From a virus, in the IMG/VR virus record IMGVR_UViG_2595698497_000001: a stretch of 64,000 nt of DNA. One strand, 5' to 3'. This document shows positions 1 through 57,509 of this stretch, in pieces. The notes beneath the pieces were generated by a model. It had not been told where the DNA came from and did no database searches. It saw nothing but the letters and a program-made list of their open reading frames with translations. The translations under genes and the position numbers were made by a program. Every line of letters starts with the position of its first letter. The stretch's first letter is position 1.

Positions 1-76
1 AGAAGAAAGAACAGGACATTTAGATGTTTACAGATCTGTTCCTAATGGACAACGAGGTAGAGTTTGTCCGTATATA

Positions 77-3077: not shown

Positions 3078-3089
3078 TTCTTGAGTTCT

Positions 3090-3161
3090 GCGGAGTTAGT
3101 TCAGCGGTAGAACGCTATCCTTCCAAGTTAGATGTCGTCGGTTCGATTCCGATACTCCGCT
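3090..3161 (+). tRNA. tRNA-Gly(TCC)
   Basis: Acceptor GCGGAGT/ACTCCGC, anticodon loop CTTCCAA, GGTTCGATTCC T-arm. Confidence 0.93.
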
Positions 3162-3165
3162 CTTA

Positions 3166-3340: not shown

Positions 3341-3359
3341 TATTCTACCCACTAGAAAA

Positions 3360-3683
3360 ATGAAGTTTCTATTAGCTATATTTGCGTCATTATTCTTTGC
3401 TTTACCTGCCATGGCTACAGAAGTCACAATGGGGGCAAATGGTAACTTAGTTTTTGAACCATCTGAAATCAATATCTCTGCAGGAGATACTGTTACTTTT
3501 GTAAATGGTATGCTTCCTCCTCATAATGTTGTTATCGAAGACCATCCCGAGTGGTCTCATGAAGATCTTGCCTTTTCAGGCGGAGAATCCTTTGACATAA
3601 CTTTTCCTGAAGCCGGAGACTTTGCTTTCTGGTGTGCCCCTCATAAAGGTGCCGGCATGATCGGCATTGCTCACGTTTCTTAA
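3360..3683 (+). CDS. petE: plastocyanin
   Basis: Signal peptide, LVFEP, HNVV and C-x2-H-x4-M copper ligands. Confidence 0.95.
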   Translation: MKFLLAIFASLFFALPAMATEVTMGANGNLVFEPSEINISAGDTVTFVNGMLPPHNVVIEDHPEWSHEDLAFSGGESFDITFPEAGDFAFWCAPHKGAGMIGIAHVS

Positions 3684-3685
3684 TT

Positions 3686-4342
3686 ATGAAAATCTTTTTA
3701 GATACTGCCGATACTGAAATCATTCGTAACCACTTTGCCACTGGTCTCATCGACGGCGTTACGACAAATCCGACTCTTATTATGAAGAGCGGACGTAACC
3801 CAGAAGATGTATATCAGGAAATCAAAGACATCGGAGTCCAAGACATTAGTATGGAGGTCGTTGGAACTGATTGGCAGATGATCGATGAGGGACGTAGGCT
3901 ATCTAAAAAGTTTGGCGAGGTGGCTACAATCAAGCTGCCTTGCACAAAAGAAGGTCTATTTGCCTGCAAGGTACTTTCAGAAGAAGGTATTAGGATCAAC
4001 GTAACTCTGATTTTCTGTGCTTCTCAAGCTGTATTAGCTTCCAAAGCCGGAGCATCATATGTCTCTCCCTTTGTAGGCCGACTTGACGACCAGTCTGTTG
4101 CAGGTCTTGAAGTTGTTCGGAGTATTTCTGAGCTATACTGCATGCATAGGAGGAGCACTAAAGTTCTTGCTGCCTCCATCCGATCAGTCCAAAGAGCTAT
4201 TAGGTCTTGGTATAACGGAGCAGAAATTGCAACAATGCCTCCTAAGGTGTTTGAGCAAATGTATGAGCATATTCTTACGGATAAAGGCCTTGAAATCTTT
4301 GATAATGATCAGAAGAAAGTAGAGGAACTTCTTAAGGCGTAA
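3686..4342 (+). CDS. talC: transaldolase (TalC/FSA type)
   Basis: FLDTAD, GVTTNPTL, IKLP Schiff-base Lys, YVSPFVGR. Confidence 0.97.
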   Translation: MKIFLDTADTEIIRNHFATGLIDGVTTNPTLIMKSGRNPEDVYQEIKDIGVQDISMEVVGTDWQMIDEGRRLSKKFGEVATIKLPCTKEGLFACKVLSEEGIRINVTLIFCASQAVLASKAGASYVSPFVGRLDDQSVAGLEVVRSISELYCMHRRSTKVLAASIRSVQRAIRSWYNGAEIATMPPKVFEQMYEHILTDKGLEIFDNDQKKVEELLKA

Positions 4343-4352
4343 GCCTTTTTTT
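4334..4352 (+). terminator. short intrinsic terminator or processing hairpin
   Basis: AAGGC-GTAA-GCCTT followed by a T run, at the talC stop. Confidence 0.55.
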
Positions 4353-4424
4353 GCAAGATTAGCTCAGCGGTAGAGCATCTCGTTTACACCGAGGCGGTCG
4401 GCGGTTCAATCCCGTCATCTTGCA
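4353..4424 (+). tRNA. tRNA-Val(TAC)
   Basis: Acceptor GCAAGAT/ATCTTGC, anticodon loop TTTACAC. Confidence 0.95.
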
Positions 4425-4446
4425 TTGTATATTACATACATTTCCC

Positions 4447-35928: not shown

Positions 35929-35978
35929 TTCACCTAGTTTAAATAGTTATTAGAAATATTGCATATATTCTAATTGCT

Positions 35979-36407
35979 ATGCTATCTTATAAGCCAATTA
36001 CCCAAGCCCAGTACTGGATTCAGGCTTCTCCTTTCCAGCACTATTTCACAACCTTCTCTGGAATTAGAGACACATCTGCCACTACTCAGTATGCGGATGG
36101 TGTAAGAGGTCGTATCTTCCAGCTCAAGGGTCCTCGTACTCTTTCTGAAGTTACTATCACCGCTCCTTTTGACCCTGAAAAGCACGCCGATATTGTCGAC
36201 TTCTGGAAGACCTATGATTGCTCTTTTATTACTCTAACTGTTACTCCTGTTAGTTGTGGTGAAGATCCTTCTCCCCTAGGAAATAGAACTATTACTGTTC
36301 CTGACGCTCAGATTACTTCTCTTAACTTTGGTCAGGCCGACAGATCCTCTACAAATGTTTCTACTCTTGAGCTTACATTTGTAATGGACACATTCACTTA
36401 TAATTGA
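35979..36407 (+). CDS. tail tube protein
   Basis: 142-aa beta-rich protein, FTTFSGI, D.SSTNVSTLELTF C-terminus; highly expressed-type codon bias. Confidence 0.7.
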   Translation: MLSYKPITQAQYWIQASPFQHYFTTFSGIRDTSATTQYADGVRGRIFQLKGPRTLSEVTITAPFDPEKHADIVDFWKTYDCSFITLTVTPVSCGEDPSPLGNRTITVPDAQITSLNFGQADRSSTNVSTLELTFVMDTFTYN

Positions 36408-36433
36408 TCTATTATCACTAGGAGGGTTGAAGC

Positions 36434-37891
36434 ATGTCGCTCTCCAACCTTTATTTTAAAAATTGCTTTTCTGAATTAACAGAAGAGCAAAAGGCTGCAA
36501 TAGATAGCATTTCGGTTGAAGACGAAGTAGTAGATAAGTCCTGCGCAAGAGACGTAAATACCTGCGGTACGACGGTCGAAGAATTATTCGACGAGTATGC
36601 GTTGTACGATCCGCAGAGAGGATTGTATCGTTCTTGGGGCGATATAATTTTCCCTTGGGACATTGATGTATCTGTTAGATCTAATTTAAATTATTCACTC
36701 ACAGACGATAAGTGGAAGATAGCTAAGTATGCTGCTCTTTATGCTTATTTTGATGGAGACAGAGTTCTTTATATTGAAGACGACGGGTATAAGGTTTGTT
36801 TATATGAGGCTAACCAAGATATCGTAGCAATTGCTGGCCCGCTTGATAAAACTAAGTGGGATCAAGTTTGCTGTATTGAATTATCAGAACCATTTGGCCT
36901 GCCTACTTTAGAAGAGCTAGAAGAACGTTGTCATTATTATGATTTAGAATTTTTCTGGAAAAAATGGAAAAATTACTCTGGCGAATGGGAAGATAACTTT
37001 TTTGAACAAGCAATTAGCACTTGCAATACTGCTGGGGTTTCAACTGCAGAGTTTATTGAAAGGTTAAAAGAAAGAGAATCGGAATACGAATGTGCAAGTG
37101 ATAAGAGTTCTGATAGATGGCTAGAAGCAAGAGTTAGAAAAGAAAATTTCTATGAAAGAGGAGATTGTGTTTTAGTAAAAGGCGTTTGCGAAGATACTGT
37201 TTGCGTATATCTTGCTACCCAAGACATTCCCGCCACAGAGTCAAATTTTAATGAACTAAGACAATTTAAATCTCGTCTAAAGCCCTCTTCAGAAACTACT
37301 AGTTATACAGTAACAGTACAAAGCGTAGTTGATGGTAATCGTTACTTTATTGATGGTTCTCAGCAATCTACTTTAAATCTCAGAGAAGGCCAGACCTATC
37401 GCTTTAGGCAAGATGATAGCTCTAACGCTAATCATCCAATACGCTTTTCTACTACGCCTAACGGTACTCATGGCGGCGGGGCTGAATTTACTCAAGGTGT
37501 AACTATAGTTGGTACTGCTGGCAGCACCGGAGCGTATACTGAAATTACAGTACCAGAAGGCGCACCGACCCTTTATTACTATTGCGTTAATCACTCTTTA
37601 ATGGGAGGGACCGCAAACACTCTCGGATTACTTCTCTGGGAAAGACTTTACTGTCTACAAACCGGAAGAAACAAATGTTTAGAGCCTCAAAGAAAAAGAG
37701 ACTTACCTAATTACCAACTTGTAGAAATAGGATCGTTAGGCCATTATGTAGAGCAACCCATACCTTATTATAATTTGGAAGGTAAGTATATCTGCGAAGA
37801 AGATAATATAGAGACATTAAATGAAAGATTAGAATGTACTGAGCCCAGAGTACTAACAGACGAAGAGATAGATCAACTAGATCCTCCATAG
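36434..37891 (+). CDS. Cys-rich structural protein with an inserted cupredoxin-like module
   Basis: GGAGG RBS; insert LNLREGQTYRF..NHPIRF...LYYYCVNHSLMGG. Confidence 0.7.
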   Translation: MSLSNLYFKNCFSELTEEQKAAIDSISVEDEVVDKSCARDVNTCGTTVEELFDEYALYDPQRGLYRSWGDIIFPWDIDVSVRSNLNYSLTDDKWKIAKYAALYAYFDGDRVLYIEDDGYKVCLYEANQDIVAIAGPLDKTKWDQVCCIELSEPFGLPTLEELEERCHYYDLEFFWKKWKNYSGEWEDNFFEQAISTCNTAGVSTAEFIERLKERESEYECASDKSSDRWLEARVRKENFYERGDCVLVKGVCEDTVCVYLATQDIPATESNFNELRQFKSRLKPSSETTSYTVTVQSVVDGNRYFIDGSQQSTLNLREGQTYRFRQDDSSNANHPIRFSTTPNGTHGGGAEFTQGVTIVGTAGSTGAYTEITVPEGAPTLYYYCVNHSLMGGTANTLGLLLWERLYCLQTGRNKCLEPQRKRDLPNYQLVEIGSLGHYVEQPIPYYNLEGKYICEEDNIETLNERLECTEPRVLTDEEIDQLDPP

Positions 37892-37904
37892 TTTAAAATA
37901 GAAT

Positions 37905-38843
37905 ATGGCTAATGTATTTGGTGGAAATAGCTCGGGTACTTGTTCTACAAGCAGACAAAATTTGTCCTCTTCTAGACAAACAAGCTCTAGCGGCGGGTCA
38001 GCAAGTTCTTCTCCTAACGTTTTTAGTGGTGGCGGCAATTCTGGAAGTTGTTCTACAGGAGGGCAAATATTATCTGCTCCTAAAACAACAGTTTCAAGTG
38101 CTGGTCAAGTAAGCTCTTCTCCAAATGTTCTTAAAGGTGGCGGCTCGGGTGTAAATAGAGAGATAGATATTAGAGACTATTATACTAGAAGGCAAATTGA
38201 CAAAGCCCTTGCTTCTAAAATAGATAGCACAAGTGTCTATACTAATACAGAAGTATACAATAAGTCCGAAGTTGATGAAAAAATTACGGCTTTAAGTTTA
38301 ACCAATTATGCCACAGATACAGAGCTATCAACGGCAGTTTCTGCGTTAGAAAGCCAAGTAAATAACAACCTTGCGAGTAATTACTATCAAAGTTCTATCT
38401 TATACACTAGGGCTCAGGTTGATAGTTTAATTTCTGGGGTCTCGGTTTCTGGAGATTATGTTTCTAGAGCTCCTTCTTCTATAACAGAAATAACTATTTC
38501 TCCTAGCTCTGCTTCTCTACCTTTTAGTTTACTAGTTAGATCGTCAAATAATACGGAAACAACTGAAGTACAAAGATGGGAAAACACATCAACAGACTTT
38601 CTTGCAGCAATTTATGCTGATGGTAAGGCTAAATTTACAAATTACACAAGTATAGGTGAAAATGTAAGTAGTGGAAATATCGCGTTATTTACAAATAATA
38701 AAAGAGTTTCTGGTGTGGCAAATCCAGTAAGCCCATCTGATGCTGTAAATAAGCTATATATGGAAACATTTATCACAACAACGTTAGATGACGTTATTAA
38801 TGACGTTGATGAAAATTACATAGTTGACGCTTTAGAGTACTAA
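37905..38843 (+). CDS. virion structural/fibre protein
   Basis: Ser/Gly-rich N-terminus, Y(T/N)xx(Q/E)(V/I)D repeats, ANPVSPSDAVNKLY motif. Confidence 0.75.
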   Translation: MANVFGGNSSGTCSTSRQNLSSSRQTSSSGGSASSSPNVFSGGGNSGSCSTGGQILSAPKTTVSSAGQVSSSPNVLKGGGSGVNREIDIRDYYTRRQIDKALASKIDSTSVYTNTEVYNKSEVDEKITALSLTNYATDTELSTAVSALESQVNNNLASNYYQSSILYTRAQVDSLISGVSVSGDYVSRAPSSITEITISPSSASLPFSLLVRSSNNTETTEVQRWENTSTDFLAAIYADGKAKFTNYTSIGENVSSGNIALFTNNKRVSGVANPVSPSDAVNKLYMETFITTTLDDVINDVDENYIVDALEY

Positions 38844-41573: not shown

Positions 41574-44500
41574 ATGCCACATATCGGTAATCACGTAGAC
41601 GCAATATTTTTACCAGAGTCAGTTAATACTTCGACTACTCTGAAGATTAATGGCGGGGACCTTAACGTAAACAACGGTCAATTTTTTGTTGATCAGAGCA
41701 CAACCAATGTTGGCATAGGCACTGTAACACCATCGACCCTCCTAGATATATACGGAGATGGTGTAAATACAACTCAAATAAGTTTGAGACAGTGGAATAC
41801 TGGAAATGATGGACCAGATATTAGGTTCTTTTGTTCTGGTGGAACTATTGCGTCTCCTGTAGAACCCAATACCGGAGACATACTTGGTAAGGTAAATGCT
41901 TTTGTAAATACCGGGAGTTCTTATGATCAGTTCGGTGGATTTGGGTGGACGTACCGTACCCAAGGTTTTGGGCTTAATATTAATCGTGGGTCTAGTTTTG
42001 CAATTGAAACTAAATCTATTTACGAGACTACCAATTCCGCAAAAATATATATTTCTGAAGAAGGCAACGTTGGAATTGGAACCGCCTCTCCATTTAGAAC
42101 ATTCCAAATTAACGGGTCTTATAACTCTAGCACATCTGAGTATGGAGCACCGAATCAGTGGTTTATAAACTCCTTAAGTTCTGCGTCTGCCGGAACTAAT
42201 CTAGGCTCAATTGTATTTTCCAGAAGTACGGGGAGTACGGGTGCTTCTGCTAAGATCCAGGCTACAGCAACGGGCACTGCAAATGAGACAGATTTGTACT
42301 TTTACAATAGAACCTCTGGCGGAGCTGATAATGTAAATAATTATTTAAATACAACTCCGACTCTAAAGCTCTACCACGACAAAACTGCAGAGTTTGCAAG
42401 TGATGTTAACCTTCCAGATGACGCTAAGCTTCTCCTAGGAACTGACGACGATTTTCAGATCTATTATGATGGCGGCACTGCTCATATAGATAATAACCAG
42501 GGCCAAATTAGGATGAGAGCAGCTTCTGCTTTCTTATTCTATTATGAAGGTAATAGCGGCGTAGAAGATTATGCTAAATTTTTGCAAAATGGAGCAGTAG
42601 AGCTTTATCATAATAATGTAAAGGCATTTGAAACTACCTCTACTGGCATTAATGTGCCCTTAGGTACAATTACTGGTCCTGCCACGCTTAACATTGACCC
42701 AGCTGTTGTTGGAGATAATACCGGAACTGTTGTTATTAAAGGAGACCTTCAGGTCAATGGCACGACCACAACCATCAACTCCACAACGCTTACTGTTGAC
42801 GATAAAAATATTGTATTAGCTTCTGGTGCAGCAAACAGTGCAGCAGCCGATGGCGCCGGGATTACTATCGATGGAGCTAATGCGAGTTTAACATGGGTTG
42901 ATAGTAATGAATCTTTTAAATTCTCCACAAGATTAACAATAGGTAGCGCTACCTCTGCATCCGCCAACTTAAGATTATCAAAAGACGTCGGTGGAGAGAA
43001 CACTACTACGTATTATAGTTTCTTAAACAACGGTCTCGTTCAACCGGATGTAACAGGGACAGCATATTATAACTTTGTTCAAGTAAGAACCGATGGCAAT
43101 AACGGTACAGGATATACAATTTCTAAACTCGAAGGGTACTCGGCCTCTGTCGGAAGCGGTACTATTCATGCGGATACCACGATTACAAATCTTATAGGAT
43201 TTGAGGTAAAAAATACCTGGACTGCAGGAACAAATAACTACGGATTTAGAGGGGAGATAGCTACTGGTACAAATAGATGGAACGTCTATATGGACGGTAC
43301 TGCTCCGAATTATTTTGCAGGTAATGTTGGGATTGGAACTGATAATCCCGATAAAAAATTAGTTGTATTGAGCGATGATAGTGAAGTTGTTATTGATGAT
43401 ACTAATGGAAGTCCTGTATTAAGATTGAGAAATAATGGTACGACAGGTGGAACAGTTGAATTAACTTCATCTAATAGTTTGCGTTTTAGAGCAGGAGGAA
43501 CTACAGAAAGACTTCGCATAACTGCCGATGGTGATTTATTAGTAAATCATGATTCCTCTGACGGCAGTGGTAAATTACAAGTCTTTACTAATAGTCAAGA
43601 TGGCATTGATATCCTTGGATTTTCAAGTGGTGCTACTGCTGGTGGAAGATTAACATTCTATAGAAGTAAAAGTACTGGAGTTGGTAACTTCTCAGAAGTA
43701 GCAGATGGTGACTCCTTAGGTAGAATAGATTGGAGAGGATATAATGATGATGGAACTACTAATAATCTAGGAGCAACAATTGAAGCACTTGTTTCTGGTG
43801 CTGTAAATTCAACAACTGATATGCCATCAGATCTTGTATTTAAGACAAGTCCCGATGGTGGTGCGTCACCAACAGAAAGACTTCGTATAACTTCTGCTGG
43901 TCGGGTTGGTATCGGAACCGATAATCCAGGAGAAAGATTGGATGTTCGTGGAAAAATACGTATCGAAGACGATAGTCCTTCACCAGGATTGCTTATAAGA
44001 GATACTGATGCTAGTGGAGATATTGAAATTTATCAGTATAATTCTGGTGATTTGCAAATTCTAAATAATGCCACTAGCAGAAACATCATATTTCAAACTC
44101 ATAATGGAACATCAGTTGGAGAAAAACTTCGTATAACTTCTGATGGTAGGGTTGGTATTGGTACGGACAGCCCAGCAACAAAACTTGAAATTGCTGGAAC
44201 TGGATCTCCTGCAATTAGAATAAAAGATTTAGATGGAACAAGTCAATTTGGGCAAATTGTTTCAAATAATGGTCTTCTTATAATTGAAAGTAGAAATGAA
44301 AATTCTGATGGTCAAATTGTTTTCCGTGGTAGAGATAATACTGACACCAATGAGTATGGAAGATTTGATGAAGTTGGTAGATTTGGTGTCGGTGTTCAAA
44401 ACCTTAATAGTAATTTACATGTAAAAGGTGGAAGTGAATCAACTGATAATCTTCTTTTAACTTTACAGTCAAATGGAGTTGCAAATGATGGTTCTTTATC

Positions 44501-47500
44501 CACAGGACTCAGATTAATCAACTCTACATCTAATACTTCAGTTCATGGTGCAGATATTAGAGCGATTCGTACTGGTACTAATACTGCTGATCTTACTTTT
44601 TCTCTTTATAATGGTAGTACTCCCCAAGAAGAAAGACTTCGTATAACCTCTGATGGTAATGTTCAATTAAAAACAGCAAATGCTCAATTAGAATGGCAAG
44701 CAGCAAGTGGCGGTGATAATCCTTTCATTAGATCTATTGGTACTGATCAAGAAGCATTAGAATTTAATACCGGTGGATCTTCAAGAGTTCGTATAGGCTC
44801 TGGTGGCAGCGTTGGTATTGGGACGGATAGTCCAGAAGCTCTTTTAGATGTAAACGGAGGTAACCTTGTAGTTCAAAACAGCTCCGGCAATAGCATTACT
44901 CTTAGAACACACGTGGGCAACGGAAACGATAGCCATTTTAATTTTCAAAAATCAAGAGGCGGATTGGGAACAATTGCCGATGTTCAAACCGGCGATCATA
45001 TTGGCACAATTTCTTTCTCAGGGTATTTTGGCGGAGCTTATAATACAGAATCTACCATCACAGTCGAGGTTGATTTAGGTAATCCTCTGAATCCTACGTA
45101 TAGTGACAGGATGTTTTATGATTCTAACGAGCACCGTTTCCGAACTAACGGCTCCACTAGAATTGCAATTTCAGCAGCTGGCTCCGTAGGCATTAACACT
45201 ACCGCCCCATCCGCCCGACTCCACGTGCGTGGTACACAAAATGCTGGTGGTATTCTGGTAGAGGATAGCAGCACGAGCACCCAAGCACCAGCAATTGAAG
45301 TCATTGGAAAGAGACAAGATGGTAATGTTCATCATAGTTTTTCTGGAAAATTACTCTTAGCAAAAAATCGCACGGATGCTAAGATTCAGGGATCCGATAG
45401 CATACTAGGCACTGTTGCATTTGGAGGTAACCACTCTACTGGCAGCACGGGCAACATCTTATATGCTGCGGCTATTCACGGTGTTGCTGAGAATTCTTTT
45501 GATGCAAATAACGACATGCCTACAGGCATAACATTCCGCACTGGTTCCACTGGTCGAAGTGGAGATACAAATAATGTACACATCACAAATGAAAGACTTC
45601 GTATAACTTCTGATGGTAACGTCGGTATTGGAACAAATGCTCCAAGTACAAAACTTGATGTTTTTGGAGCTATCAAAAGTAGCCCAGTTGCCTATGGAAA
45701 CAATCAAGACGGAACTTACCTTATTGCAGGATCAACGTCGTGGTCAGGAGCCACTAGTAACTGGGGGCTTATGGCTTTCAGCACAAAATTAAATCAAATG
45801 CCGGGGGAACCGCAAGAATAACTGTTGATACAATAAGCGGTGAAGCTTTATGTGTATTAAATAATAATCACATTGGAATTGGAACTAATAATCCGCAAGG
45901 AACTGTACACATTTCATCAGGAACTTCCGGTGATTGCGAGCTGATACTTGAATCTGATACAGATAACAATGAAGAACATGACAATCCGAGAATAATATTC
46001 AAACAAGATGGCGGACTAGAAGAATCTGCTATTGAACAATTAAATAATGAGTTAACTCTATCAAATTCTGTTGCTAGTCATGGTGGTATTGTTTTTAAAA
46101 CCGGAACTAATTCCCCTTATACAAATGCAACAGAAAAAATTCGTATAACTCCGAGTGGTCAAGTAGGCGTTGGAGTATCAACTGTTGCTAGAGGGCCACT
46201 CCATATCCACCAAGGAACCACTGGTGATACTCAGATTCACATGACCAACTCTGAGACAGGGACGAGCTCTTCTGATGGTTTTACTATCTTCCAAGGTGCG
46301 GGGTCTAGTGGCGAACAATGCGGATTTGTAAATAGAGAGGAAAACGGAAAAATAAGGTTCATTATGAACACCGGCCCAGACATGGGTGGCAACCCAACAA
46401 TCGAGGATCAGATGGTTCTGCTTAGCAACGGCAACCTTGGAGTTGGCGTCTCTGATCCTACAAGATCACTCCATGTTAGCGGCAATAGTTATATTACAGG
46501 TCGTGTAGGAATTGGCACAACAGAGCATTCGAGCTATTATCTATCTATTAGAAATACCGGCATGGCCACCACCACTGGTGGTGTACTTGTTGACTGTCAT
46601 GACTGGAGCACAAATTCTTCTGAATACGGAATAAATGTTGATATTGATAGCAGCAACCGAACAAACCTAACCACGAACAGAACACACCGAGGCATAAGCA
46701 CTGACATGAGAATCCGTGTCGCCCAAAACGCCAGCAACACTTCTGGCACTAGGCAGTCTGCGTACGGAACGTATAGCAGTGTGCACGTTGATGACACAGA
46801 TAATAACGATGGAAAAATGTATTATGTGTGGGGTTCGTACTCTAGAGGCAGAGTTGATGGTATTAATTGCGCCAATCTAAGAGGTGCTTATAACCTTGCT
46901 CAGTGCGCCGATAACGCCACTGGCCAAGGGCGAACAGTGGATAGTGCGTACGGCACTTATTCCAACATGGTAAATGATGGTAATCAGACCACCATCACAA
47001 ACGCCTATGGAGTATATGCCAACGTAAACCAAGACGACGTCGGTGGTGCAATGACAAACGCCTACGGAGTTTACTCTAAGCTAGACAGGGACGCCGGTAC
47101 CGGAGGAACAGGGCATCTCTTTAGAGGAGACTTTGACGGAACTTGGAGCACTAAGCGTGGCCTTTGGCTTACAGGAGACACGGAAAACTCGGTGAATGGA
47201 ACATTTTCCGCTGCTTCTAAAGACTTTAAAATCCCGCACCCTCTCCCAGAGCTTTCTGAAACAAAAAATTTAGTCCATACTTGTATTGAGGCTCCTGCTC
47301 ACGACTTGATTTACAGAGGAAAATCTGAACTTGTAGACGGCTTTGCAATAATTAATTTGGATACAAAGTTTAGAATGACAGAAGGAACTTTTGTTGCTCT
47401 GAATAGAAAAATTCAATGCTTTACTTCTAATGAATCGGATTGGAGTGCAGTTAGAGGTTCCGTGAGCGGAAACATTTTAACAATTGAATGCCAAGATAGC

Positions 47501-47656
47501 TCTTCTACCGCAACGGTTTCTTGGATGGTCATTGGAGAACGCCAAGATGATAAAGTTAAGTCTATTGTTACAACAGACGCGGACGGCAACCTAATCTTAG
47601 AACCAGATCGTGAACCAGAAGAACCTGATACTGAAAAAGCAGAGACGCCAGACTAA
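41574..47656 (+). CDS. long modular tail fibre protein 1, interrupted by a -1 frameshift (about 2027 aa if fused)
   Basis: Frame 0 (41574..45821) and the -1 frame (open 45761..47656) both encode GIGT/ERLRIT modules; C-terminal KDFKIPHP domain lies in the -1 frame. Confidence 0.85.
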
Positions 47657-47657
47657 G

Positions 47658-47665
47658 GTTTAAAG
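47658..47665 (+). promoter_or_regulatory. GTTTAAAG box (candidate late promoter)
   Basis: Intergenic, 26 nt upstream of ATG 47692. Confidence 0.65.
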
Positions 47666-47691
47666 TAGACTATATATTATAGACAAGCAGC

Positions 47692-50600
47692 ATGGCATAT
47701 ATTGGACGTAATCCGGCCATTGGAACACAGAAGGTATTAGATAGCCTAGAGTCTCAGTTTAACGGAAGCAAAGTAACTTTTGATCTGAGGTATAACTCAA
47801 ACACCATCTACCCACCCATTGCTTCGGCGCTAATTGTCAGCCTTGGTGGTGTTCTTCAAGAGCCTGGTGTAGCCTACACTGTAACGTCTGACACTATTAC
47901 CTTTGCCTCGGCACCTCCGATAGGGACGGACTGCTGGATCTTGCTCTATACAGAGTTTGGAAGAGCGGCAGATAGTGCTACCAATTTTTCTGTATCCAAT
48001 AACCTCACTATTGGCAACGAGCTGCACGGCCCTGCCAACTTTATCATCGACCCCGCCACAATTGGAGATAATACCGGCACGGTGGAGATTAAGGGCAACC
48101 TAACGGTCCAGGGTACCCAGACCACTGTTAACTCCACGACGGTCGATCTTGATCATCTGTCCCTAGGAGACGGCGAAATTGCAAATTTTGGCACTGACAA
48201 CGATCTTAGGATATATCACTCTGGCAATGTTTCTAGAATTTATGATACTTCAACCAACTTACAGATTGCCGGCAGCATAGTCGAATTACGCAATTCTGGG
48301 ACAAATGAGGTGATGATTGCCGCCTATGAAGACGATAGGGTAGAGCTTTATTATGACAGTAGCAAGAAACTTGAAACAACAAATACTGGTATTGATGTAA
48401 CTGGTCACACTGAAACTGATACCTTAAATGTTTCTGGTATTTCTACATTCCAAGGTAATGTTCATCTTGGAGATAATGACAGATTAAGAATTGGTGATGG
48501 AAATGATTTAGAGTTGTATCATGATGGAACTGATGACCTCATTCGCAGTTCTGGAACTACTCTTAAAATCACAGGAACTAGAGTTGTAGTAAACAATGCT
48601 GCCAATAATGCAAATCAGGCAGTATTTACTGCTGGTGGATCAGTAGCACTCTACCATAATGCATCCAAAAAATTTGAAACCACTTCTTCTGGTATTGATG
48701 TAACAGGACATACTGAAACTGATACCTTAAGAGTTTCTGGTATTGCTACCTTTACAGGATCAGAAACCAACTTTGAAGGATTGACAAAGATAACACGTAC
48801 AAACGACGGACAGGCATTACAGTTAATAAACACCAGCAATGCTAATAATGCTTATGTGGATCAACGATTTAACATTGATGGACATTCTAGAGCTAGTATA
48901 AGGGGGCAGATATTCGGGGCAAATTTAGGTGGATTACTAAGATTTTATACTGCTGCTAATTCACAAGTACTCACAGAAAGAGCAGTTATTGATTACAATG
49001 GAAGATTTGGAATAAACGTTACTTCTCCAACAGAGACTTTAGATGTTGGAGGAACTACTCAAACTCAACAGTTAAATGTAACTGGTGTTTCTACGTTTGC
49101 TAATACTATTTCTGTTGCTGAGACAATTCAACACACAGGAGATACTAATACCTCTATCAGCTTCCCTTCTAATGATTACATTAGACTTACAACATCTGGT
49201 TCCTCTAGACTTAATGCTACTCCAAATGGTTACATTCTATTAGGAACAAATAGTGAACCTTCTGGTGGTGATGCTCATGCACGAAATGCAAGGCTAGTTG
49301 TTCAAGGAAGAATTGGCAATACTGCTGATAGTGGCCGTCTTAATCTGCAACGTGGATCATCTACATCTAATGGCTCTAGCATTGGAAGTATTACTTTTAC
49401 TGATAATAGTAATAATGCTTATGCAAGAATTGAAACATTAGCTGATGCTGCACCAGGAACTAATGATTATCCAGGTAGAATTGTTTTCAGCACCACACCA
49501 GACGGATCTGCATCACCAACAGAAAGCCTTCGTATAACTTCTGCTGGATATGTCTCTATTCCAGATGATAGTGGTAGATTTACTGCCGGTAGTAGTAATG
49601 ATCTGCAAATTTATCATGATGGAAGTAATAGCTATGTAGAGGATGTAGGAACAGGTGCTCTCATCATGAAGGGAAGTACTGTTCGTATTAGATCCACTAC
49701 TAACGAGAATATGCTTAGTGCTTCTCAAAATGGAGCAATAAGTCTTTATTACGATAATAGCGTAAAACTTGAAACAACATCTACTGGTATTGACGTAACA
49801 GGGAAAACAGATACTGATACTTTAAATGTCTCTGGTCTTTCTACACTCCAAGGAACTCTTGAATTTGATAGCACTTTGCAAAGTTATGATCCGGCTGGAG
49901 GTGGGGGATCCGACACATCAACAAATGCAGCAATTGCTCTTCCTAGTGGAAAACAAATTGTTGGAGTTGACGATGGATATATTAGAAGCTTATTAAGCTG
50001 GAGTGATAGTAGTAATATCATAATAGGACAACAAAACACATCTAAAATTCAAGGCATTCAATTAAAACCGGGAACTAATGCTGGAGTCGGACTTCATTAT
50101 GGTGGAAGTGGTGATAATTTAAAATTTAGAACCACGTCTACTGGCGTTGATGTACTTGGGACCATAACTGCATCTAGTGATGGTTCAAACCCTATAATAC
50201 TTGTCAAAGGCAGCGGTCCTAACTTTATTCGATTTGCATCTGACTCAAGTGGAACTGTAGACGCTGACTCGATAGATTTTGTATACAGAGCAACTCCTAA
50301 TACATTAGGATTTGAAAGATCGTCTGATGGAACAACTTTTTGGACGACTGATGCCGATACAGGAGTAACAAACTTTAACTATACTCCGACAGTATCTGGT
50401 AGTAGTATTTTTAATGCTTCTAACTTAAACGCCGGAACAATTCCTGATGCCCGCATACCGGATGTAATCACACCTACTACCAGAGTCCAAACACAGGAGA
50501 TACGCGCCAACGGTACTCAGCTTGTACTTAATGCTGGTGAAGCTGCTGGTAAATTTTCAGGTCAAACCGCTGAAAAGATCTACCTCAACTCTGAGGGCGG

Positions 50601-52083
50601 GACACGAATCTCAACGCCTACCGGCGGGGGAAATTTTGAATCGGGTTACGTCACAAACATCACAGAGATAACAGGACAGGGAATTTTCTTTCATAACGGA
50701 ACCACCCGTATAGGTGAAATTACAACTCAAGATACAACATGGTTAAGGATCAACCAAACTACTGCTAAGAATATCTACACTCCGCGTTACATCCGCGCAG
50801 ATGGTGGTTTATTTGTTGATGGAACAGCAAAAGGAATTAATGGAAGCGGTAACTTCATTGGCGGCACAATTGCAGGTGCTTCTGATGTTACAGACGCAAA
50901 TACTGCTAATACAGTTGTCAAAAGGAATGGATCTAGTGATATCAATTGCAGATTAGTACGCCAATCGTATCAAAACCAAAGCACCATTAGCGGTGGCATA
51001 GTTTACCGAATTAATAACGGCAACGATAACTATCTCAGAGTTTGCAATAGCCCCAGCGCAATCAGAACATTTCTCGGAGTTACTGCTACCGGTAGCGACG
51101 GAAATTACCTCAGAGCGAACGCTACTGACACTGCCACTGGAACGTTAACGTTCAACGGTCTTGTCAATATTCGCACCGGTCTGGATTTTGCAGATGGTGA
51201 TTTTATACGGATGGGATCCAGCGATGACTGGACTGCTACCTTTAACAACAATAACTGGCTCTATATAAATCAAAAGGGGAACGGAATTATTTTCCAAGAC
51301 AATGGCACCGGTAAGATGGTTTTGGAAGACAGCGGAATCTTTAGGCCACATAGTAACAACCAGGGCGCTATTGGTACAACTACCCATCGATGGAATATTG
51401 TATACGCCTACGGCATAAGATCACAATCTCAAGGAAGTCCTGGACATAACAACAGCACTACCGGTTATGCACTAAGCAGCACCGGCGCAGGCTACTTTTC
51501 ACGTTCTGGCGGTGAAGCGCTTTATTGCAACAGAAACCAAAACGGCGGTATTGTTCGTTTCGGTCGGAGCGGGTCTGAAAAGGGGCAAATTGTAATGAAC
51601 ACCAACTCGGTGTCTTATCAAACCACGTCAGACTATCGACTTAAAGAAAACGTTGTTGCTTTAGAAAACGGAATAGAGCGAGTTAAGCAGCTTAAGCCAT
51701 ATCGTTTCAACTTTATTGATGATCCTAACGAAACCCTTGACGGTTTCCTTGCTCACGAGGCTCAAGAAGTTGTACATGAATGTGCTTCTGGGACAAAGGA
51801 CGAAATGAAAGGTATTGGCACACTCACCGAGTGGGATGGAACCACCCTTGAAACTGACGTTGTTGAGCCTGATGAATTAACTTGGGAAGAAACAATTACT
51901 GACGAAGAAGGCAATGAGACTACTCAAACACGAACCCGTACATGGACACAAACTGGTACTCAACCGGTTCATCAAGGGATCGACCAAGCCAAACTTGTAC
52001 CGTTGCTAACTGCCGCGCTGCAAGAAGCAATTACTAAAATTGAACAGTTAGAAGCTCGCATTACTCAATTAGAATCTACGTAG
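47692..52083 (+). CDS. long tail fibre protein 2 with C-terminal S74-type intramolecular chaperone
   Basis: MAYIGRNP..FNG..LGGVLQEP anchor; three ETT..GIDVTG.T.TDTL repeats; TSDYRLKEN...KLVPLLTAALQE. Confidence 0.9.
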   Translation: MAYIGRNPAIGTQKVLDSLESQFNGSKVTFDLRYNSNTIYPPIASALIVSLGGVLQEPGVAYTVTSDTITFASAPPIGTDCWILLYTEFGRAADSATNFSVSNNLTIGNELHGPANFIIDPATIGDNTGTVEIKGNLTVQGTQTTVNSTTVDLDHLSLGDGEIANFGTDNDLRIYHSGNVSRIYDTSTNLQIAGSIVELRNSGTNEVMIAAYEDDRVELYYDSSKKLETTNTGIDVTGHTETDTLNVSGISTFQGNVHLGDNDRLRIGDGNDLELYHDGTDDLIRSSGTTLKITGTRVVVNNAANNANQAVFTAGGSVALYHNASKKFETTSSGIDVTGHTETDTLRVSGIATFTGSETNFEGLTKITRTNDGQALQLINTSNANNAYVDQRFNIDGHSRASIRGQIFGANLGGLLRFYTAANSQVLTERAVIDYNGRFGINVTSPTETLDVGGTTQTQQLNVTGVSTFANTISVAETIQHTGDTNTSISFPSNDYIRLTTSGSSRLNATPNGYILLGTNSEPSGGDAHARNARLVVQGRIGNTADSGRLNLQRGSSTSNGSSIGSITFTDNSNNAYARIETLADAAPGTNDYPGRIVFSTTPDGSASPTESLRITSAGYVSIPDDSGRFTAGSSNDLQIYHDGSNSYVEDVGTGALIMKGSTVRIRSTTNENMLSASQNGAISLYYDNSVKLETTSTGIDVTGKTDTDTLNVSGLSTLQGTLEFDSTLQSYDPAGGGGSDTSTNAAIALPSGKQIVGVDDGYIRSLLSWSDSSNIIIGQQNTSKIQGIQLKPGTNAGVGLHYGGSGDNLKFRTTSTGVDVLGTITASSDGSNPIILVKGSGPNFIRFASDSSGTVDADSIDFVYRATPNTLGFERSSDGTTFWTTDADTGVTNFNYTPTVSGSSIFNASNLNAGTIPDARIPDVITPTTRVQTQEIRANGTQLVLNAGEAAGKFSGQTAEKIYLNSEGGTRISTPTGGGNFESGYVTNITEITGQGIFFHNGTTRIGEITTQDTTWLRINQTTAKNIYTPRYIRADGGLFVDGTAKGINGSGNFIGGTIAGASDVTDANTANTVVKRNGSSDINCRLVRQSYQNQSTISGGIVYRINNGNDNYLRVCNSPSAIRTFLGVTATGSDGNYLRANATDTATGTLTFNGLVNIRTGLDFADGDFIRMGSSDDWTATFNNNNWLYINQKGNGIIFQDNGTGKMVLEDSGIFRPHSNNQGAIGTTTHRWNIVYAYGIRSQSQGSPGHNNSTTGYALSSTGAGYFSRSGGEALYCNRNQNGGIVRFGRSGSEKGQIVMNTNSVSYQTTSDYRLKENVVALENGIERVKQLKPYRFNFIDDPNETLDGFLAHEAQEVVHECASGTKDEMKGIGTLTEWDGTTLETDVVEPDELTWEETITDEEGNETTQTRTRTWTQTGTQPVHQGIDQAKLVPLLTAALQEAITKIEQLEARITQLEST

Positions 52084-52101
52084 ACAGATAATTAATCCCA
52101 A

Positions 52102-52109
52102 GTTTAAAG
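52102..52109 (+). promoter_or_regulatory. GTTTAAAG box (candidate late promoter)
   Basis: Intergenic, 39 nt upstream of ATG 52149. Confidence 0.65.
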
Positions 52110-52148
52110 TTACAGTAGAAATATTGTAATTAAAGCTATAAGGTTGTT

Positions 52149-55100
52149 ATGCCCTTAACCCGTATTGATTCTGCGTTCCTTGACCTAGATGCAATAGGTG
52201 GGATAGATTTTGATGTGCAGTCAGGAGTCCCGACGTTTAGTGTTGATGCTGTAAACCACCGAGTTGGTATTGGTACTGATAGTCCGACAACAAAATTAGA
52301 AGTCATTGGAGATATAACGGTATCAAAGCAAAATGCATTTATAGAATTAAAAGACCCAGACACGGCTGATGCAAACTACCGACTAAGAAACCAGGGCGGA
52401 TCATTTAGTATTTACGACGTTACTAACAATCAAGTAAAAATCGCTGCTACAGCTGGGTATGTAACAATCTATCCCAATCTAAATGCCAATAACGGCCTAG
52501 ATGTGATGGGAACAATTACCGGAGATGGCAATTTAGACATTGCTGATGGCATAAGACATTACGGAGATACTAATACTTCTATTAGTTTTCCTGCCGCTGA
52601 TACAATTACGGCAGAAACAGGTGGTACTGAAAGACTTCGTATAACTTCTGGTGGTAATATTGGTATTAATAATACTACTCCAGATACAGTTTTAGACGTC
52701 AATAGCGACGGAACTGCTGGAATTATTCAACTCACTGGAGCAAGACCCTCTGATAGTAACAATGCTTTTTTCTCAGGTAGATCATCAAGAGGAACTATTG
52801 CTTCACCTACAACCCTTGTAACAAATGATATTATTGCAACTTTTCAGGGTAAGGCACATGATGGATCAAATTACTTACAAGCAGGAAGAGTAAGGTTTGG
52901 TGTTGATAGTATTTCTACTGGAAATTTAAGTTCAAACCTACAGTTCATGCTCTCCAATAATGGAGAATTTGAAGCACTTCGTATAACTTCTGATGGTGAT
53001 GTAGGAATCGGAGTTGCTGACCCAGATGTGTATAGTCTTGGTGGCAATAATAGATATGCTGCTATAAAAGCATCTGCTGGATATACAGTATTGAATTTGG
53101 TTGATTCAAATAATTCTGGATCATACTTACAATTTGGAAACTCTTCAGTTAGAAGAGGATCTTTACAATTTTTGAGTAATTCTGACTTTGTTATTACCTC
53201 CAATGCAAGTAATAGTGGAACAACTCTCACAGAAAGACTTCGTATAAAATCTGCTGGTAGAATTGGTATCGAGACTGATGATCCAACTGAAAGACTAACT
53301 GTTCATGGAACTAACAATGACACCACTCCTATTTTAGGATTAAGATCAGGTAATAGTCAAACTACCATTAATAATGGAGCACAAATTGCCTTTGGATTTA
53401 ATGGAACAAATCACTATCAGCATTTTATTCATACTAGACATAACGCATCAAATAATAATAATGCAATAGATTTTTATGTTTGTGACGGAACACAGCAAAA
53501 TACTGTAACTTCTGGTTCTATCCATACATTAAGTATGGTATCTGGAAAAGTTGGTATCGGAGTCACAAATCCACAAGGAACTGTACACATTTCATCAGGA
53601 ACTTCTGGAGATGCAACGTTAATTCTTGAAGCAGACACTGACAATAGTAACGATGCGGATAATCCATATATTGTGTTTAGGCAAGATGGTGGTGTTAATG
53701 CCTCTGCAATAGGACATGGTGTGAATTCTGGAGTTGATGGTAATGTGCTTACCATAGCAAATTCAATTAGTAATGGTTCTATAACTTTTGCAACAGGAGC
53801 TACTAATGGTTATGCAAACGCGACAGAAAGACTTCGTATAAATTCTGATGGTAAGATAAATGTAGGTGGATCAGCTGGGGCGGTTGGAACTAAATTTAAC
53901 ATTCTCAATGGAAGTGATAATCAAAATATACTTGGAATTACTGGTGCAGATGAATCTAGTGAATATGCAGCAATTGGAGTTAGTGGAGGTAATGCTGTAT
54001 TTACTGGTGGAGGAGCTGGCACAACAAGTACAGGTATAATTTTTAGAACTGCTGCAAGTGGCGCAGAAACTGAAAGAGTTCGTATAACTTCTGATGGTTC
54101 AGTTGGTATCGGAACTGTAAGTGCCGAACATCAACTTACTGTTTTTAATAATGGATATACTGGAGTTACTATTAAATCAAGTAGAACAAATGCCACAAGT
54201 AACATTGGTGGACTTGATTTTAAAACTCAAAACACAACTGTTGCCCGTATTCAATCTTTTGTTGATGGATCAATTAGATTTAGAAATACCTCATCCTTAC
54301 TAGACAGACTTCGTATAACTCCTACTGGTAATGTTGGCATTGGAGTTATTGATCCAGAATGTAAACTTCAAGTTGGGGGTGATTTACAAGTAGGAGATTC
54401 TAATAATCCAGGCACATTTATTAACGTGGTTGGTGCTGGTGTAGGTCAGAATTTTGGGATTAGATTTGGTGGTGGTTCTAATAACCCAGAATCAAAGTTT
54501 TCAATCTTGGGTAATACCAATGATGGTCATATGCGATTTAGATTTGGTGGAACAGAAAAGTTCCGTATCAGATCTGATGGTAAGTTTGGATTTGGAACTG
54601 GTGGGAATATAGATGAAAGGGGACACATAGAAACTGCTAGTGGAAATTGTAGATTAAAATTACAAACTGGAAATACTGCCGTTGCTGGTTTTGTTCTTCA
54701 AACTTCTGCTAAAAGATTTGATATCCAGGCACAAAATAATTTCTTCCAACTTTATGATAGTACTGTAGGTACAGATAGGATTCGTATAGATTCCGATGGT
54801 GATGTGGGTGTCGGAATTGCTGATCCACAAGAAAGGTTACATGTGGCAAGAATTGTCATGATAACCGGCAATACGCCACAAATCAGACTAAATGCTAATG
54901 ATTCTGATGCATCTGATGGTGATAGAACGATGCTCGGGCAGGCAACAGGTAATGGTAATTTTGTAACCACTGCTGTTGATAATGATACCATTCTACGAGG
55001 AACTTCAACTGGTAATTTATTATTTGGTGTTGGTACATCAGAAAAATTCCGTATAACCTCTTCTGGTAATGTTGGCATTGGGACTAACAATCCTGCTTCA

Positions 55101-57509
55101 AAGCTTTCAAACTCCGCAACAGCAGTTAGTGATGGAACCCAGAGTGTAGGTTCAAATGGATTAAACTGGAAAACTTCGAACTCAAATGCGTATATCGCTG
55201 GCTTCGAAAACCAGTCTACTGGTAACGGGGCTCTGTTCCGGGTTGGTGATGATAATTCCGCCCGAAAGATCCTACATGCAATGAACGGATCTGGGTCTAC
55301 TGTATTTCTAGCTAGAGGTGACGGCAACGTTGGCCTTGGTACAAACAGCCCAGGAGGAAAACTGCATGTCGAATCAGCGGCAACTACGGCCGGTTGGCAA
55401 ATAAGAACAGATAGCGTTGGCTTAAGCAATGAAAGTGGATTCTATCGCGATGCCTCTGATCACTACGAGGTGGTAATCAGAAACGGCCTTGGTGGTCTTT
55501 CGTATGTTAAAAACGACGGCGGGGCTTCTACTGCAAATCTTAGATTCAACGTACAGGGAGGCGAGCGTCTTACCATACTTTCCAGTGGTAACGTTGGCAT
55601 TGGTACTAACAACCCCGTCTATCCTCTTCATGTTCAAGAATCGGCTTATTTCCGCAGAGGTATACAAGTAGCAGTACTCTCTTCAAATGAACTTCAGAGT
55701 AGGTCTCCGATCAACTCTGGTTTTTATAACGTAGACAATACTACAACTGCAAACGGGTGGCCATTTACCGGTTGGGCACATCTCCTTGCAAACACACATA
55801 GCAACACCACCAACTACTACTCCCAGCAATTTGCCAGCAGCTTCTATAACCAAGAGCTATACTTCCGTAACACTAACAACGGTAGCACAACAACCACCCA
55901 GTCCTGGGGTCAGGTGATGCATACCAACTCCGCCCTAAAGCCTGTGTTTGCCGAATCTAGTGGTGTTACAGACGCATATAGCAGATATTGGTACCCTGGT
56001 GGTGAGTATTATGTTTCTGTTCATGGCATCACCGCCCCTGGCGATGCAAACAATATGATTGAGCAAGGCTACTATCACATTGCAAATAACACTTCCAACA
56101 ACCCGACCTCCGCCTACGGATATTTAAATGTCCATCGGCATGCCGGATCTCAATACTCTCTCCAGCATTTTATTGTGAGCTCAGACACTGGTAGGCAGTG
56201 GATGAGAGCTTCGTATCCTGACGGCAGCCAATCAAGCGGAAGAAACTGGTACCAATGGTATAGCTACGGAGCCCTTGAAAGGGAAAACACATTCACAAAC
56301 CGCCAGCACATCATCGGCCCCTCTTCTACATCTACATTTACAGGACTTCATCCCAATACAAGTAATAATAGGGCTCAGTTTGTTCTGCATAGCAACTACT
56401 CTGATTTGGTTATCTCGTCTTCACAAAACAATAATAACCACGGAAGTACCTTATCGTTTGTAACACAAAATCCTTCTAATACTGCAGATTATAATAAGTT
56501 TGTTATTAACAAAGGAAATTATGGCACAAGAAATCAATTCTTAGAATTTGGATTTATTGACAACGAGTACACCAACCCTCATGACTACGTTAATAGTACT
56601 AACACTGCGGTAACTATCGACGGTAATAACAAACGGTTGGGTATTGGGCCCGGTGCACGAACTCCGGGATATCCATTAGACGTTCGTTTTGCTGGAGACT
56701 CTGGAATCCACGCCTCTAGTAGCAACTCTCACTGTTCTTTATTTTTAAATGCTTCAACAGGAAACGGTAGCTACATTAGAATGTCGGCCGGTGGAAATCA
56801 AAAATTCTGGATTGCCACAGACGGCAGCGGCCATTTAAACTTCAGACCAAATGCCGGAGGTACAACTATAAGAATGCAAAACGGCGGAAAACTTGATGCA
56901 TTCGCAGGGATTTATGTGTCCGGCGCGTCGCTAACGCTTGCAAATACTGAGCTAGACTTTACTACCGCAAACCATAAGTACATTGACTTCTACACCAATA
57001 ACGGCAACACGGTGAACTTTAGAATGCCGAATAATTCTAACGTTTTCCACACTGGTATACAAATGGTTAAAGCCGGAGCAGTAAATCTTTACCATAATAA
57101 CACCGTTAAATTCTACACCACTAGCACCGGAACTTTCACTAACGGCATACAGGGCAGTTCTGATGCTCGATTGAAAACAAATGTTATAACTGTACCTAAT
57201 GCTCTAGATAAAGTTAGAGCAATGAGAGGAGTTAAGTTTAACTGGATAGAAGACGGCAGAGCAGATTACGGTGTTATTGCTCAAGAGGCAGAAACCGTTG
57301 TTCCTGAGCTGGTAGGAGACCACGAGACTAAGAAATTAACCCAAGCTGGGTCTCTCAAGAAACGCCCAGATGACTCTGATTATATTACCACAACAGAAAA
57401 AGGATTCTCTTATATGTCTATGGTAGGTATACTCATCGAGGCAATCAAAGAACAACAGGCCACTATCGACTCCTTAACGGCCCGCATAGATGCATTAGAA
57501 AACCCATAA
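52149..57509 (+). CDS. long tail fibre protein 3 with knob-like domains and C-terminal S74-type chaperone
   Basis: About 11 GIG/ERLRI modules, DANNMIEQGYY knob-like segment, SSDARLKTN...ILIEAIKE. Confidence 0.9.
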   Translation: MPLTRIDSAFLDLDAIGGIDFDVQSGVPTFSVDAVNHRVGIGTDSPTTKLEVIGDITVSKQNAFIELKDPDTADANYRLRNQGGSFSIYDVTNNQVKIAATAGYVTIYPNLNANNGLDVMGTITGDGNLDIADGIRHYGDTNTSISFPAADTITAETGGTERLRITSGGNIGINNTTPDTVLDVNSDGTAGIIQLTGARPSDSNNAFFSGRSSRGTIASPTTLVTNDIIATFQGKAHDGSNYLQAGRVRFGVDSISTGNLSSNLQFMLSNNGEFEALRITSDGDVGIGVADPDVYSLGGNNRYAAIKASAGYTVLNLVDSNNSGSYLQFGNSSVRRGSLQFLSNSDFVITSNASNSGTTLTERLRIKSAGRIGIETDDPTERLTVHGTNNDTTPILGLRSGNSQTTINNGAQIAFGFNGTNHYQHFIHTRHNASNNNNAIDFYVCDGTQQNTVTSGSIHTLSMVSGKVGIGVTNPQGTVHISSGTSGDATLILEADTDNSNDADNPYIVFRQDGGVNASAIGHGVNSGVDGNVLTIANSISNGSITFATGATNGYANATERLRINSDGKINVGGSAGAVGTKFNILNGSDNQNILGITGADESSEYAAIGVSGGNAVFTGGGAGTTSTGIIFRTAASGAETERVRITSDGSVGIGTVSAEHQLTVFNNGYTGVTIKSSRTNATSNIGGLDFKTQNTTVARIQSFVDGSIRFRNTSSLLDRLRITPTGNVGIGVIDPECKLQVGGDLQVGDSNNPGTFINVVGAGVGQNFGIRFGGGSNNPESKFSILGNTNDGHMRFRFGGTEKFRIRSDGKFGFGTGGNIDERGHIETASGNCRLKLQTGNTAVAGFVLQTSAKRFDIQAQNNFFQLYDSTVGTDRIRIDSDGDVGVGIADPQERLHVARIVMITGNTPQIRLNANDSDASDGDRTMLGQATGNGNFVTTAVDNDTILRGTSTGNLLFGVGTSEKFRITSSGNVGIGTNNPASKLSNSATAVSDGTQSVGSNGLNWKTSNSNAYIAGFENQSTGNGALFRVGDDNSARKILHAMNGSGSTVFLARGDGNVGLGTNSPGGKLHVESAATTAGWQIRTDSVGLSNESGFYRDASDHYEVVIRNGLGGLSYVKNDGGASTANLRFNVQGGERLTILSSGNVGIGTNNPVYPLHVQESAYFRRGIQVAVLSSNELQSRSPINSGFYNVDNTTTANGWPFTGWAHLLANTHSNTTNYYSQQFASSFYNQELYFRNTNNGSTTTTQSWGQVMHTNSALKPVFAESSGVTDAYSRYWYPGGEYYVSVHGITAPGDANNMIEQGYYHIANNTSNNPTSAYGYLNVHRHAGSQYSLQHFIVSSDTGRQWMRASYPDGSQSSGRNWYQWYSYGALERENTFTNRQHIIGPSSTSTFTGLHPNTSNNRAQFVLHSNYSDLVISSSQNNNNHGSTLSFVTQNPSNTADYNKFVINKGNYGTRNQFLEFGFIDNEYTNPHDYVNSTNTAVTIDGNNKRLGIGPGARTPGYPLDVRFAGDSGIHASSSNSHCSLFLNASTGNGSYIRMSAGGNQKFWIATDGSGHLNFRPNAGGTTIRMQNGGKLDAFAGIYVSGASLTLANTELDFTTANHKYIDFYTNNGNTVNFRMPNNSNVFHTGIQMVKAGAVNLYHNNTVKFYTTSTGTFTNGIQGSSDARLKTNVITVPNALDKVRAMRGVKFNWIEDGRADYGVIAQEAETVVPELVGDHETKKLTQAGSLKKRPDDSDYITTTEKGFSYMSMVGILIEAIKEQQATIDSLTARIDALENP

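Follow-up and report, generated by a model that had tools for sequence, protein, structure and literature searches.

Why should the coding DNA that joins divergent segments of phage tail fibres hold its silent sites almost constant? The question arises in a 64,000-nt stretch of viral DNA (IMG/VR record IMGVR_UViG_2595698497_000001; here, the window), in which a protein-defined search places a 27-nt tract encoding E-R-L-R-I-T-S-x-G at 17 fibre-module junctions, from 43506 to 55067. The answer that we consider probable from sequence comparison is that the tract is a conserved joint, at or beside which related phages exchange, add and lose modules, and that its codons are likely kept uniform by recombination over short homology.

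By its gene content and matches the window is a TIM5-like cyanomyovirus (Aurunvirus). It encodes a mitochondrial-type DNA polymerase domain, a tail sheath and a Mu-like portal, and the only record with long matches to its 41-58 kb region is the Aurunvirus S-TIM54 (85% over 35% of the query), whose genome serves as a proxy for the window's own virus in whole-genome checks. The tracts lie on the + strand in three fibre genes: the modular gene A (41574..47656; phrog_9942 tail fibre), gene B (47692..52083; 1463 aa) and gene C (52149..57509; 1786 aa), the latter two ending in a C-terminal S74 chaperone (PF13884). The first-pass annotation had reported a codon-locked motif in all three genes, and a search by peptide alone recovers the same 17 copies, although the spread is uneven, with seven in gene A, one in gene B and nine in gene C. 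The codon pattern was likewise described correctly: the Arg-Ile pair is CGT ATA in 15 of 17 copies (the exceptions being CGC ATA at 43506 and CGT ATC at 54555), Leu is CTT in all 11 copies that have it, and the upstream Arg is AGA in ten of 11 and AGG once. Measured against the codon usage of the same fibre genes with junctions masked, CGT (16/17; background 0.14), ATA (16/17; 0.25), CTT (11/11; 0.30), TCT (13/14; 0.33) and GGT (15/17; 0.33) all stand out, and outside the fibre genes CGT ATA encodes just two of 41 Arg-Ile pairs. The neighbouring V-G-I-G varies freely at synonymous sites, as had been noted, its top codons (7/12, 8/13, 7/11 and 8/12) lying near background. Once five pairs are set aside, 131 junction pairs with non-homologous flanks remain; their synonymous identity exceeds expectation by 0.54-1.00 over the nine codons from E to G and by -0.10 to 0.22 over V-G-I-G-T, so that the lock stops at Gly with a sharp edge; codon +16 also shows an excess (0.66). 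The window holds 14 exact copies of TTCGTATA where 2.0 would be expected; every one is on the + strand, from 43882 to 54788, and this 8-mer is thus present at 14 of the 17 junctions.

The modules between copies are divergent, as first described, with non-homologous flanks in 131 of 136 junction pairs and a single alignment (78 nt, 82%) among the 14 inter-junction segments of the window. Neither codon usage nor recent whole-module duplication explains the lock, and the claim that the constraint acts on nucleotides is upheld. The pattern recurs in S-TIM54, where CGT ATA occupies nine of nine junctions and the four exact 15-mer matches all fall within fibre genes. Extended to other phages, the codon comparison upholds the contrast in part: among 62 de-duplicated, protein-ascertained loci with at least three junctions, 58 of them scoreable, the tract scores above V-G-I-G in 41; its excess reaches at least 0.5 in 18 loci and stays below 0.25 in 23. 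The lock depends on lineage, and hence the peptide does not require these codons.

Contigs of close relatives, taken as assembled sequences and not as reads, record gains and losses at these joints. In gene A, a V-G-I-G-T-x-x-P junction without a tract (43320..43357, + strand) precedes tract 1 (43506..43532, the CGC ATA variant), tract 2 (43875..43901), tract 3 (44121..44147), tract 4 (44631..44657), tract 5 (44781..44807), tract 6 (45591..45617, with the full consensus) and tract 7 (46133..46159). One contig, with two differences over 2324 nt, lacks 579 nt from 43323 to 43903, beside tract 2, and is longer by about 384 nt at tract 4, inside which the overlap spans 11 nt (44631-44641). Contigs of two studies lack 825 nt from 43331 to 44157, the deletion ending in the V-G-I-G of the tract 3 junction. 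Both deletions start at the tract-less junction, which also begins a block common to S-TIM54, and both cross in or just before V-G-I-G. In gene B, a 427-nt block common to S-TIM54 ends at 49541, within tract 8 (49522..49548). Gene C holds tract 9 (52629..52655), where relatives change sequence at 52639, one of them into the second spelling described below, then tracts 10 to 13 (52971..52997, 53232..53258, 53826..53852 and 54072..54098), tract 14 (54303..54329), tract 15 (54555..54581, the CGT ATC variant), tract 16 (54774..54800), within which a 314-nt block common to S-TIM54 starts at 54781, and tract 17 (55041..55067). In one relative's contig, tract 16 is fused to the earlier tract 14 through TTCGTATA (471 nt); another joint skips 483 nt inside the tract (54089-54573), a weak case with 30 letters on its short side. 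The five natural joint lengths (579, 825, 471, 483 and about 384) are all multiples of three. A joint between 53822 and 46130 is weak and may reflect two paralogous modules; further short-sided joints of unclear content were left out of the event counts.

The crossover points do not coincide. Natural joints cross at +3, +7, +14, +25 and +33, and sharp breakpoints between pairs of at least 95% identity are scattered, among the matches listed, over about -19 to +52 nt; with the linkage values included, the scatter reaches about -20 to +55. The tie of a position to its upstream module declines from 0.91 (-30..-16) through 0.79 (-15..-4) and 0.69 (-3..11) to 0.33 (12..23), 0.31 (24..38) and 0.09 beyond, and linkage to the downstream module takes the values 0.04, 0.33, 0.44 and 0.81 in successive bins from -15. 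Crossovers are spread over about 70 nt, with the tract as the centre and tails on both sides. A fixed crossover site centred on TTCGTATA, as the first-pass annotation had it, finds no support in view of the scattered breakpoints, the two deletions that cross in V-G-I-G and a second pool of junctions that lacks TTCGTATA. What survives of that proposal is the shuffling itself, since modules are exchanged, added and lost at junctions, both in the in-frame joints of relatives and in comparisons among phages.

For these comparisons, junctions were gathered with degenerate peptide patterns (128 and 121 loci, with flanks for 80 each), with two DNA spellings and from named phages; an anchor on the N-terminus of gene B gave 80 loci with junctions in just two and was abandoned. 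Among 636 distinct junction contexts, with flank sharing judged over 120 nt upstream or downstream, 60 pairs share the upstream flank only and 42 the downstream flank only (102 one-flank pairs), against seven pairs that share both flanks without being identical. Shared blocks of at least 150 nt and at least 85% identity end within -30 to +65 nt of a profile-defined junction in 148 of 297 cases where 68 are expected, which bears out the predicted enrichment of mosaic breakpoints; an earlier strict-motif count (96 of 258 ends, against 15%) misses degenerate junctions and was replaced. Seven of the 14 inter-junction segments of the window match other loci fetched, several of them loci of T4-like phages at 80-94%. 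Off the motif, block ends recur within fibre open reading frames (ORFs) at G-T-N|E-G-E-L-V, Q-M-T-G-M| and Q-A-G-I| (L526, L601, L550, L521 and others), which are possible secondary exchange points.

The tract exists in two main spellings. At 180 protein-ascertained R-I-T-S junctions, CGT ATA ACT TCT (spelling A) occurs 52 times and CGC ATC ACA TCA (spelling B) 23 times, with no other haplotype above eight. When each junction is classed from its companions at the locus, A loci carry CGT at 117/130, ATA at 111/130 and ACT at 78/86, and B loci carry CGC at 121/150, ATC at 125/150 and ACA at 81/85, counts that are inflated by loci found through the DNA spellings and by overlapping loci of one contig. 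Leu is fixed as CTT in both (90/93 and 100/107). The codon background is nearly equal in the two groups, CGC and ATC standing at 0.04 and 0.16 in B genomes, and both spellings run against codon usage. Spelling A occupies 19 of 20 junctions found by protein search in the marine Synechococcus myoviruses S-TIM54, S-SM2, S-SKS1 and S-PRM1 and spans two unrelated families of such viruses. Spelling B belongs to Prochlorococcus-type myoviruses; P-TIM68 has it, as does G001, a complete T4-like genome in which 23 of 24 matches end in ATC. A photosystem gene is present in eight of the 53 contigs searched, and it lies closest to Prochlorococcus-phage genes in five of five B contigs and to Synechococcus-phage genes in three of three A contigs. 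Exceptions are Sf-CH5, with neither spelling (0/3), P-SSP3, with one CGT ATA, the pelagiphage Kolga, with a B-like joint, and Aurunvirus relatives that hold B copies; the link between spelling and host appears to be a trend and not a rule. Among 11 one-flank pairs of mixed spelling, five contrast full spellings, each side matching its resident majority, one is ambiguous, and the remaining five involve single-change CGT ATC copies that differ from A-type neighbours.

Further joints add detail to this picture. Sf-CH5, a T4-like Synechococcus phage, carries a hybrid joint (L218; 12630 and 13734) in which the myovirus left half is followed by CGT ATC GAC AGC, and the Pelagibacter phage Kolga has two B-like junctions (L654:2331-4076), hinting at exchange across host phyla. 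The right half of spelling B equals that of the podovirus S-CBP1 in two of five copies, and spelling B may itself be a chimera. A third spelling, found in contigs of 48-57% GC (L016, L020, L022, L058, L073, L076, L097, L114 and L120), reaches through the V-G-I-G part (GGG CTC GTA GGC ATA GGG). Cytosine methylation, which we take to occur in the type phage, was rejected as a source of the A/B differences, three of the four being transversions. Baran et al. contains no mention of 'methylat', 'recombin' or 'tail fib'.

The architecture of the tract does not resemble that of a dedicated recombination site. Across the 17 junctions the best inverted arms match at 6.7 of 11 positions, against 6.6 in shuffles, so no dyad is found; the 14 exact cores all lie on the + strand, no inverted repeat involves a tract, and the motif is restricted to fibre genes and to one strand per genome. 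Part of spelling A (43875-43890 and other tracts) presumably resembles one arm of loxP, and the spelling holds ACTTC twice, 10 nt apart; there is no second arm, the likeness is lost in spelling B, and a lox-type site was rejected for want of a dyad. A dedicated recombinase, envisaged as lying elsewhere in the genome, is not borne out, as the five lock-bearing myoviruses S-TIM54, S-SM2, S-SKS1, S-PRM1 and P-TIM68 have no match to PF00589 (tyrosine recombinase) or to PF00239 (resolvase), although a remote homologue or a host enzyme may still take part. The podovirus S-CBP1 has one PF00589 match, and no recombinase family appears among the 30 of 88 listed window ORFs that were scanned. All three T4-like genomes tested have RecA/UvsX. 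A search for a host origin of the site returned one match to the exact 21-mer in 185,579 cellular genomes (one per species). The spread of crossovers, the two deletions through V-G-I-G, the half of all block ends that fall elsewhere, the lack of a dyad at the site and the absence of a tyrosine recombinase match from the five myoviruses together favour short-homology recombination over a site-specific system.

The protein offers a reason for joints to fall where they do. Residues 149-386 of gene C match the Bdellovibrio MAT structure 8OML (E 5e-5) over a span that includes two junction peptides. In the sections consulted of the MAT study, which reports structures 8OML, 8OL4 and 8ON4, capping loops bound the clefts of a trimeric beta-helix and their consensus ends in P-x-x-x-L (Caulton et al. 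2024, PMC10769870). By this likeness the modules would adopt a trimeric beta-helix fold and form shaft and cleft segments, which may bind receptors as the first-pass annotation had it, and the tract would encode the last strand and turn before a capping loop, a natural place to join segments.

These observations can be assembled into a mechanism. The peptide would be conserved as the lead into the capping loop between triple-beta-helix segments, and its conservation would supply a starting homology of about 60 nt per joint and keep chimeras foldable. General recombination would then act on this homology, through UvsX in T4-like phages and, in Aurunvirus, through an as yet unrecognised annealing protein or the RecA of the host. 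If a perfectly matched seed is needed, joints spelt like the majority would recombine most and spread, holding even rare codons in place, and separate co-infection pools would settle on different spellings. Every junction of the set has E-R-L-R-I-x-x-x-G but several have no V-G-I-G, and this difference would account for the edge of the lock at V-G-I-G. In a toy simulation with a perfect-match gate and high recombination rates, a contiguous locked core forms and a rare-codon spelling is kept, and in the same model without the gate identity is scattered; the simulation indicates that the idea can work, no more.

Several points weigh against this account. The left half GAA AGA CTT CG is common to both spellings, which also fits a bound site, and S-TIM54 has no match to RecA/UvsX, Rad52, AAA_24, resolvase or integrase models. 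The 23 scoreable loci with an excess below 0.25 carry the same peptide, and crossovers run through the unlocked V-G-I-G, so that position alone leaves the sharp right edge unexplained. The one-flank pairs, which fall into 41 (upstream) and 30 (downstream) connected groups, and the block ends are not independent events, and the other half of the 297 block ends lie away from junctions. In the simulation, parameters are arbitrary, two seeds were run per setting, and locking is weak at lower rates. Beyond the preferred reading, a broader proposal treats the tract as a self-enforcing plug standard, recognised by sequence or gated by matching, through which unrelated marine virus families share one module library; the spelling would partition this library by host (Synechococcus versus Prochlorococcus) and would be overwritten on crossing. 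Taken furthest, the proposal has the shared left half read by a protein of phage or host. This proposal we regard as tentative and rather unlikely.

The explanations that compete with match-dependent recombination differ in what they ask of the silent sites. A passive account, which seems unlikely to us, needs no perfect match: the protein would allow joints only at the hinge, and the tract, uncoupled from its flanks, would drift within each pool or keep an ancestral spelling. It is consistent with the weak linkage of positions +12..+23 to either flank (0.33 and 0.44), with V-G-I-G crossovers that share only five or six letters and with the many unlocked lineages, but the high counts of CGC and ATC in AT-rich genomes, over so low a background, speak against it, and the ungated toy model yields no contiguous block. 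Still more doubtful is a sequence-specific protein (a nickase, a Chi-like factor or a half-site recombinase) that would bind the shared left half, start exchange and resolve in a gradient. The fixation of GAA AGA CTT CG in both spellings, the confinement of the motif to fibre genes and one strand, and the match between spelling and host genus would all suit such a protein; the absence of a dyad and of tyrosine recombinase or resolvase matches in the five myoviruses, the scattered breakpoints, the deletions that start at a tract-less junction, the single cellular match to the 21-mer and the different left half locked in podoviruses argue against it.

A constraint at the level of RNA or translation, whether a hairpin, a promoter, a processing site or a pause between folding units, is very improbable. 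All copies lie on the coding strand and S-TIM54 has tRNAs for AGA and ATA, as this account would have it, yet synonymous recodings fold with the same energy as the natural sequences (mean z -0.10 and -0.17; 80 junctions each), promoter-like sequences show no excess (43 against 43.3 expected), with none listed at a tract, there is no Rfam match, and for Arg and Ile the codon choice of one spelling is the opposite of the other's. Promoter, RNA hairpin and Rfam RNA were accordingly rejected as candidates. Codon bias or recent whole-module duplication is hardly credible: AGA (0.55) and GAA (0.68) are common codons in any case, but CGT, ATA, CTT and TCT all belong to the minority codons, and their nominal P values run from 6e-6 to 3e-13 (copies treated as independent); the non-homologous flanks and lone 78-nt match speak against duplication.

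Other features of the locus stand beside this argument. The reading frame of gene A is broken near 45762, at a run of five G (45757-45765), giving an ORF at 41574-45821 and a second frame to 47656, in which tract 7 lies in frame downstream of the break. Contigs from three runs (X6, X7 and X12) have six G at this point and the S-TIM54 orthologue is a single ORF, so the break is private to the window sequence; it may be a sequencing error, a private mutation or a slippage-prone site. The N-terminal parts of genes A and B contain a second repeat family, V-E-L-Y-x-x-N-x-x-K-x-F-E-T-T-x-T-G-I, whose copies (42597-42655, 48340-48398, 48643-48701 and 49738-49796) are 64-80% alike. Upstream, the ORF at 36434 has 485 aa and its S-TIM54 counterpart 2140 aa (window 34069-38843 against L129:1-8982), a large length change in a fibre-like gene without a tract. 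Positions 1917-4425 hold five tRNA genes (Asn, Thr, Leu-TAG, Gly and Val) among talC, ptoX, gnd and zwf, an ordinary arrangement for the group.

No part of a cyanophage genome varies more than the fibre genes, which likely determine host range. With a 27-nt joint that can be counted, their rebuilding becomes testable, and the spelling marks the last gene pool of a module. The joint also shows gene flow between Aurunvirus and T4-like phages within shared hosts. Under the preferred reading, it would in addition be a clear example of recombination, and not translation, shaping silent sites.

Cre/loxP, the Cin, Gin and Min invertases, the Rci shufflon and integrons act on, or provide, in-frame repeats inside fibre or pilus-tip genes. 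Unlike these site-specific shuffling systems, the tract lacks both a dyad and a single crossover base, and neither inverted cassettes nor a recombinase match accompany it. The closer parallel is the recombination between conserved motifs in the distal tail-fibre and adhesin genes of T-even phages that Tetart, Desplats and Krisch reportedly described in 1998. There, too, short conserved coding motifs are said to serve as crossover points between divergent fibre genes, and here, likewise, the motif DNA is more conserved than its flanks and mosaic boundaries are enriched at it. In contrast to the T-even motifs, one motif here recurs at every module joint (17 in the window and 24 in G001), with a silent-site lock that has sharp edges, is common to Aurunvirus and T4-like phages and comes in two pool-specific spellings. 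The PeSL cassettes of RB49 and phi1 offer another comparison, as the parts of that report drawn on here describe short direct repeats that bring about the shuffling of modules and from which circles can be released (Arbiol et al. 2010, PMC2839356). PeSLs lie between genes, and their promoter and terminator functions keep their sequence constant, whereas the tract lies in frame, and the sigma-70 promoter and stem-loop terminator of such elements find no counterpart at the tracts, where neither a promoter nor a hairpin is indicated. Motifs of 44, 95 and 20 nt that flank tailspike receptor-binding domains across phage genera are proposed as hotspots in the sections consulted of Pas et al. (2023, PMC10408124); they flank one domain at 63-81% identity, and those sections present no silent-site test or repeated array. 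The Bdellovibrio MAT fibres share an S74 chaperone, mosaic tips, the capping-loop motif and, by likeness of sequence, probably trimeric beta-helix segments, but they sit on the surface of a bacterium and begin with a signal peptide followed by a domain of 130 aa, whereas the fibre genes here are phage virion genes; the sections consulted of that paper (PMC10769870) are silent on codons and crossover sites, and the comparison is one of proteins. The literature searched, mostly outside subscription journals, holds no description of the tract or its spellings. Crossover at fibre-gene motifs is thus a known principle, and what is new here is that one peptide is written in two linked spellings.

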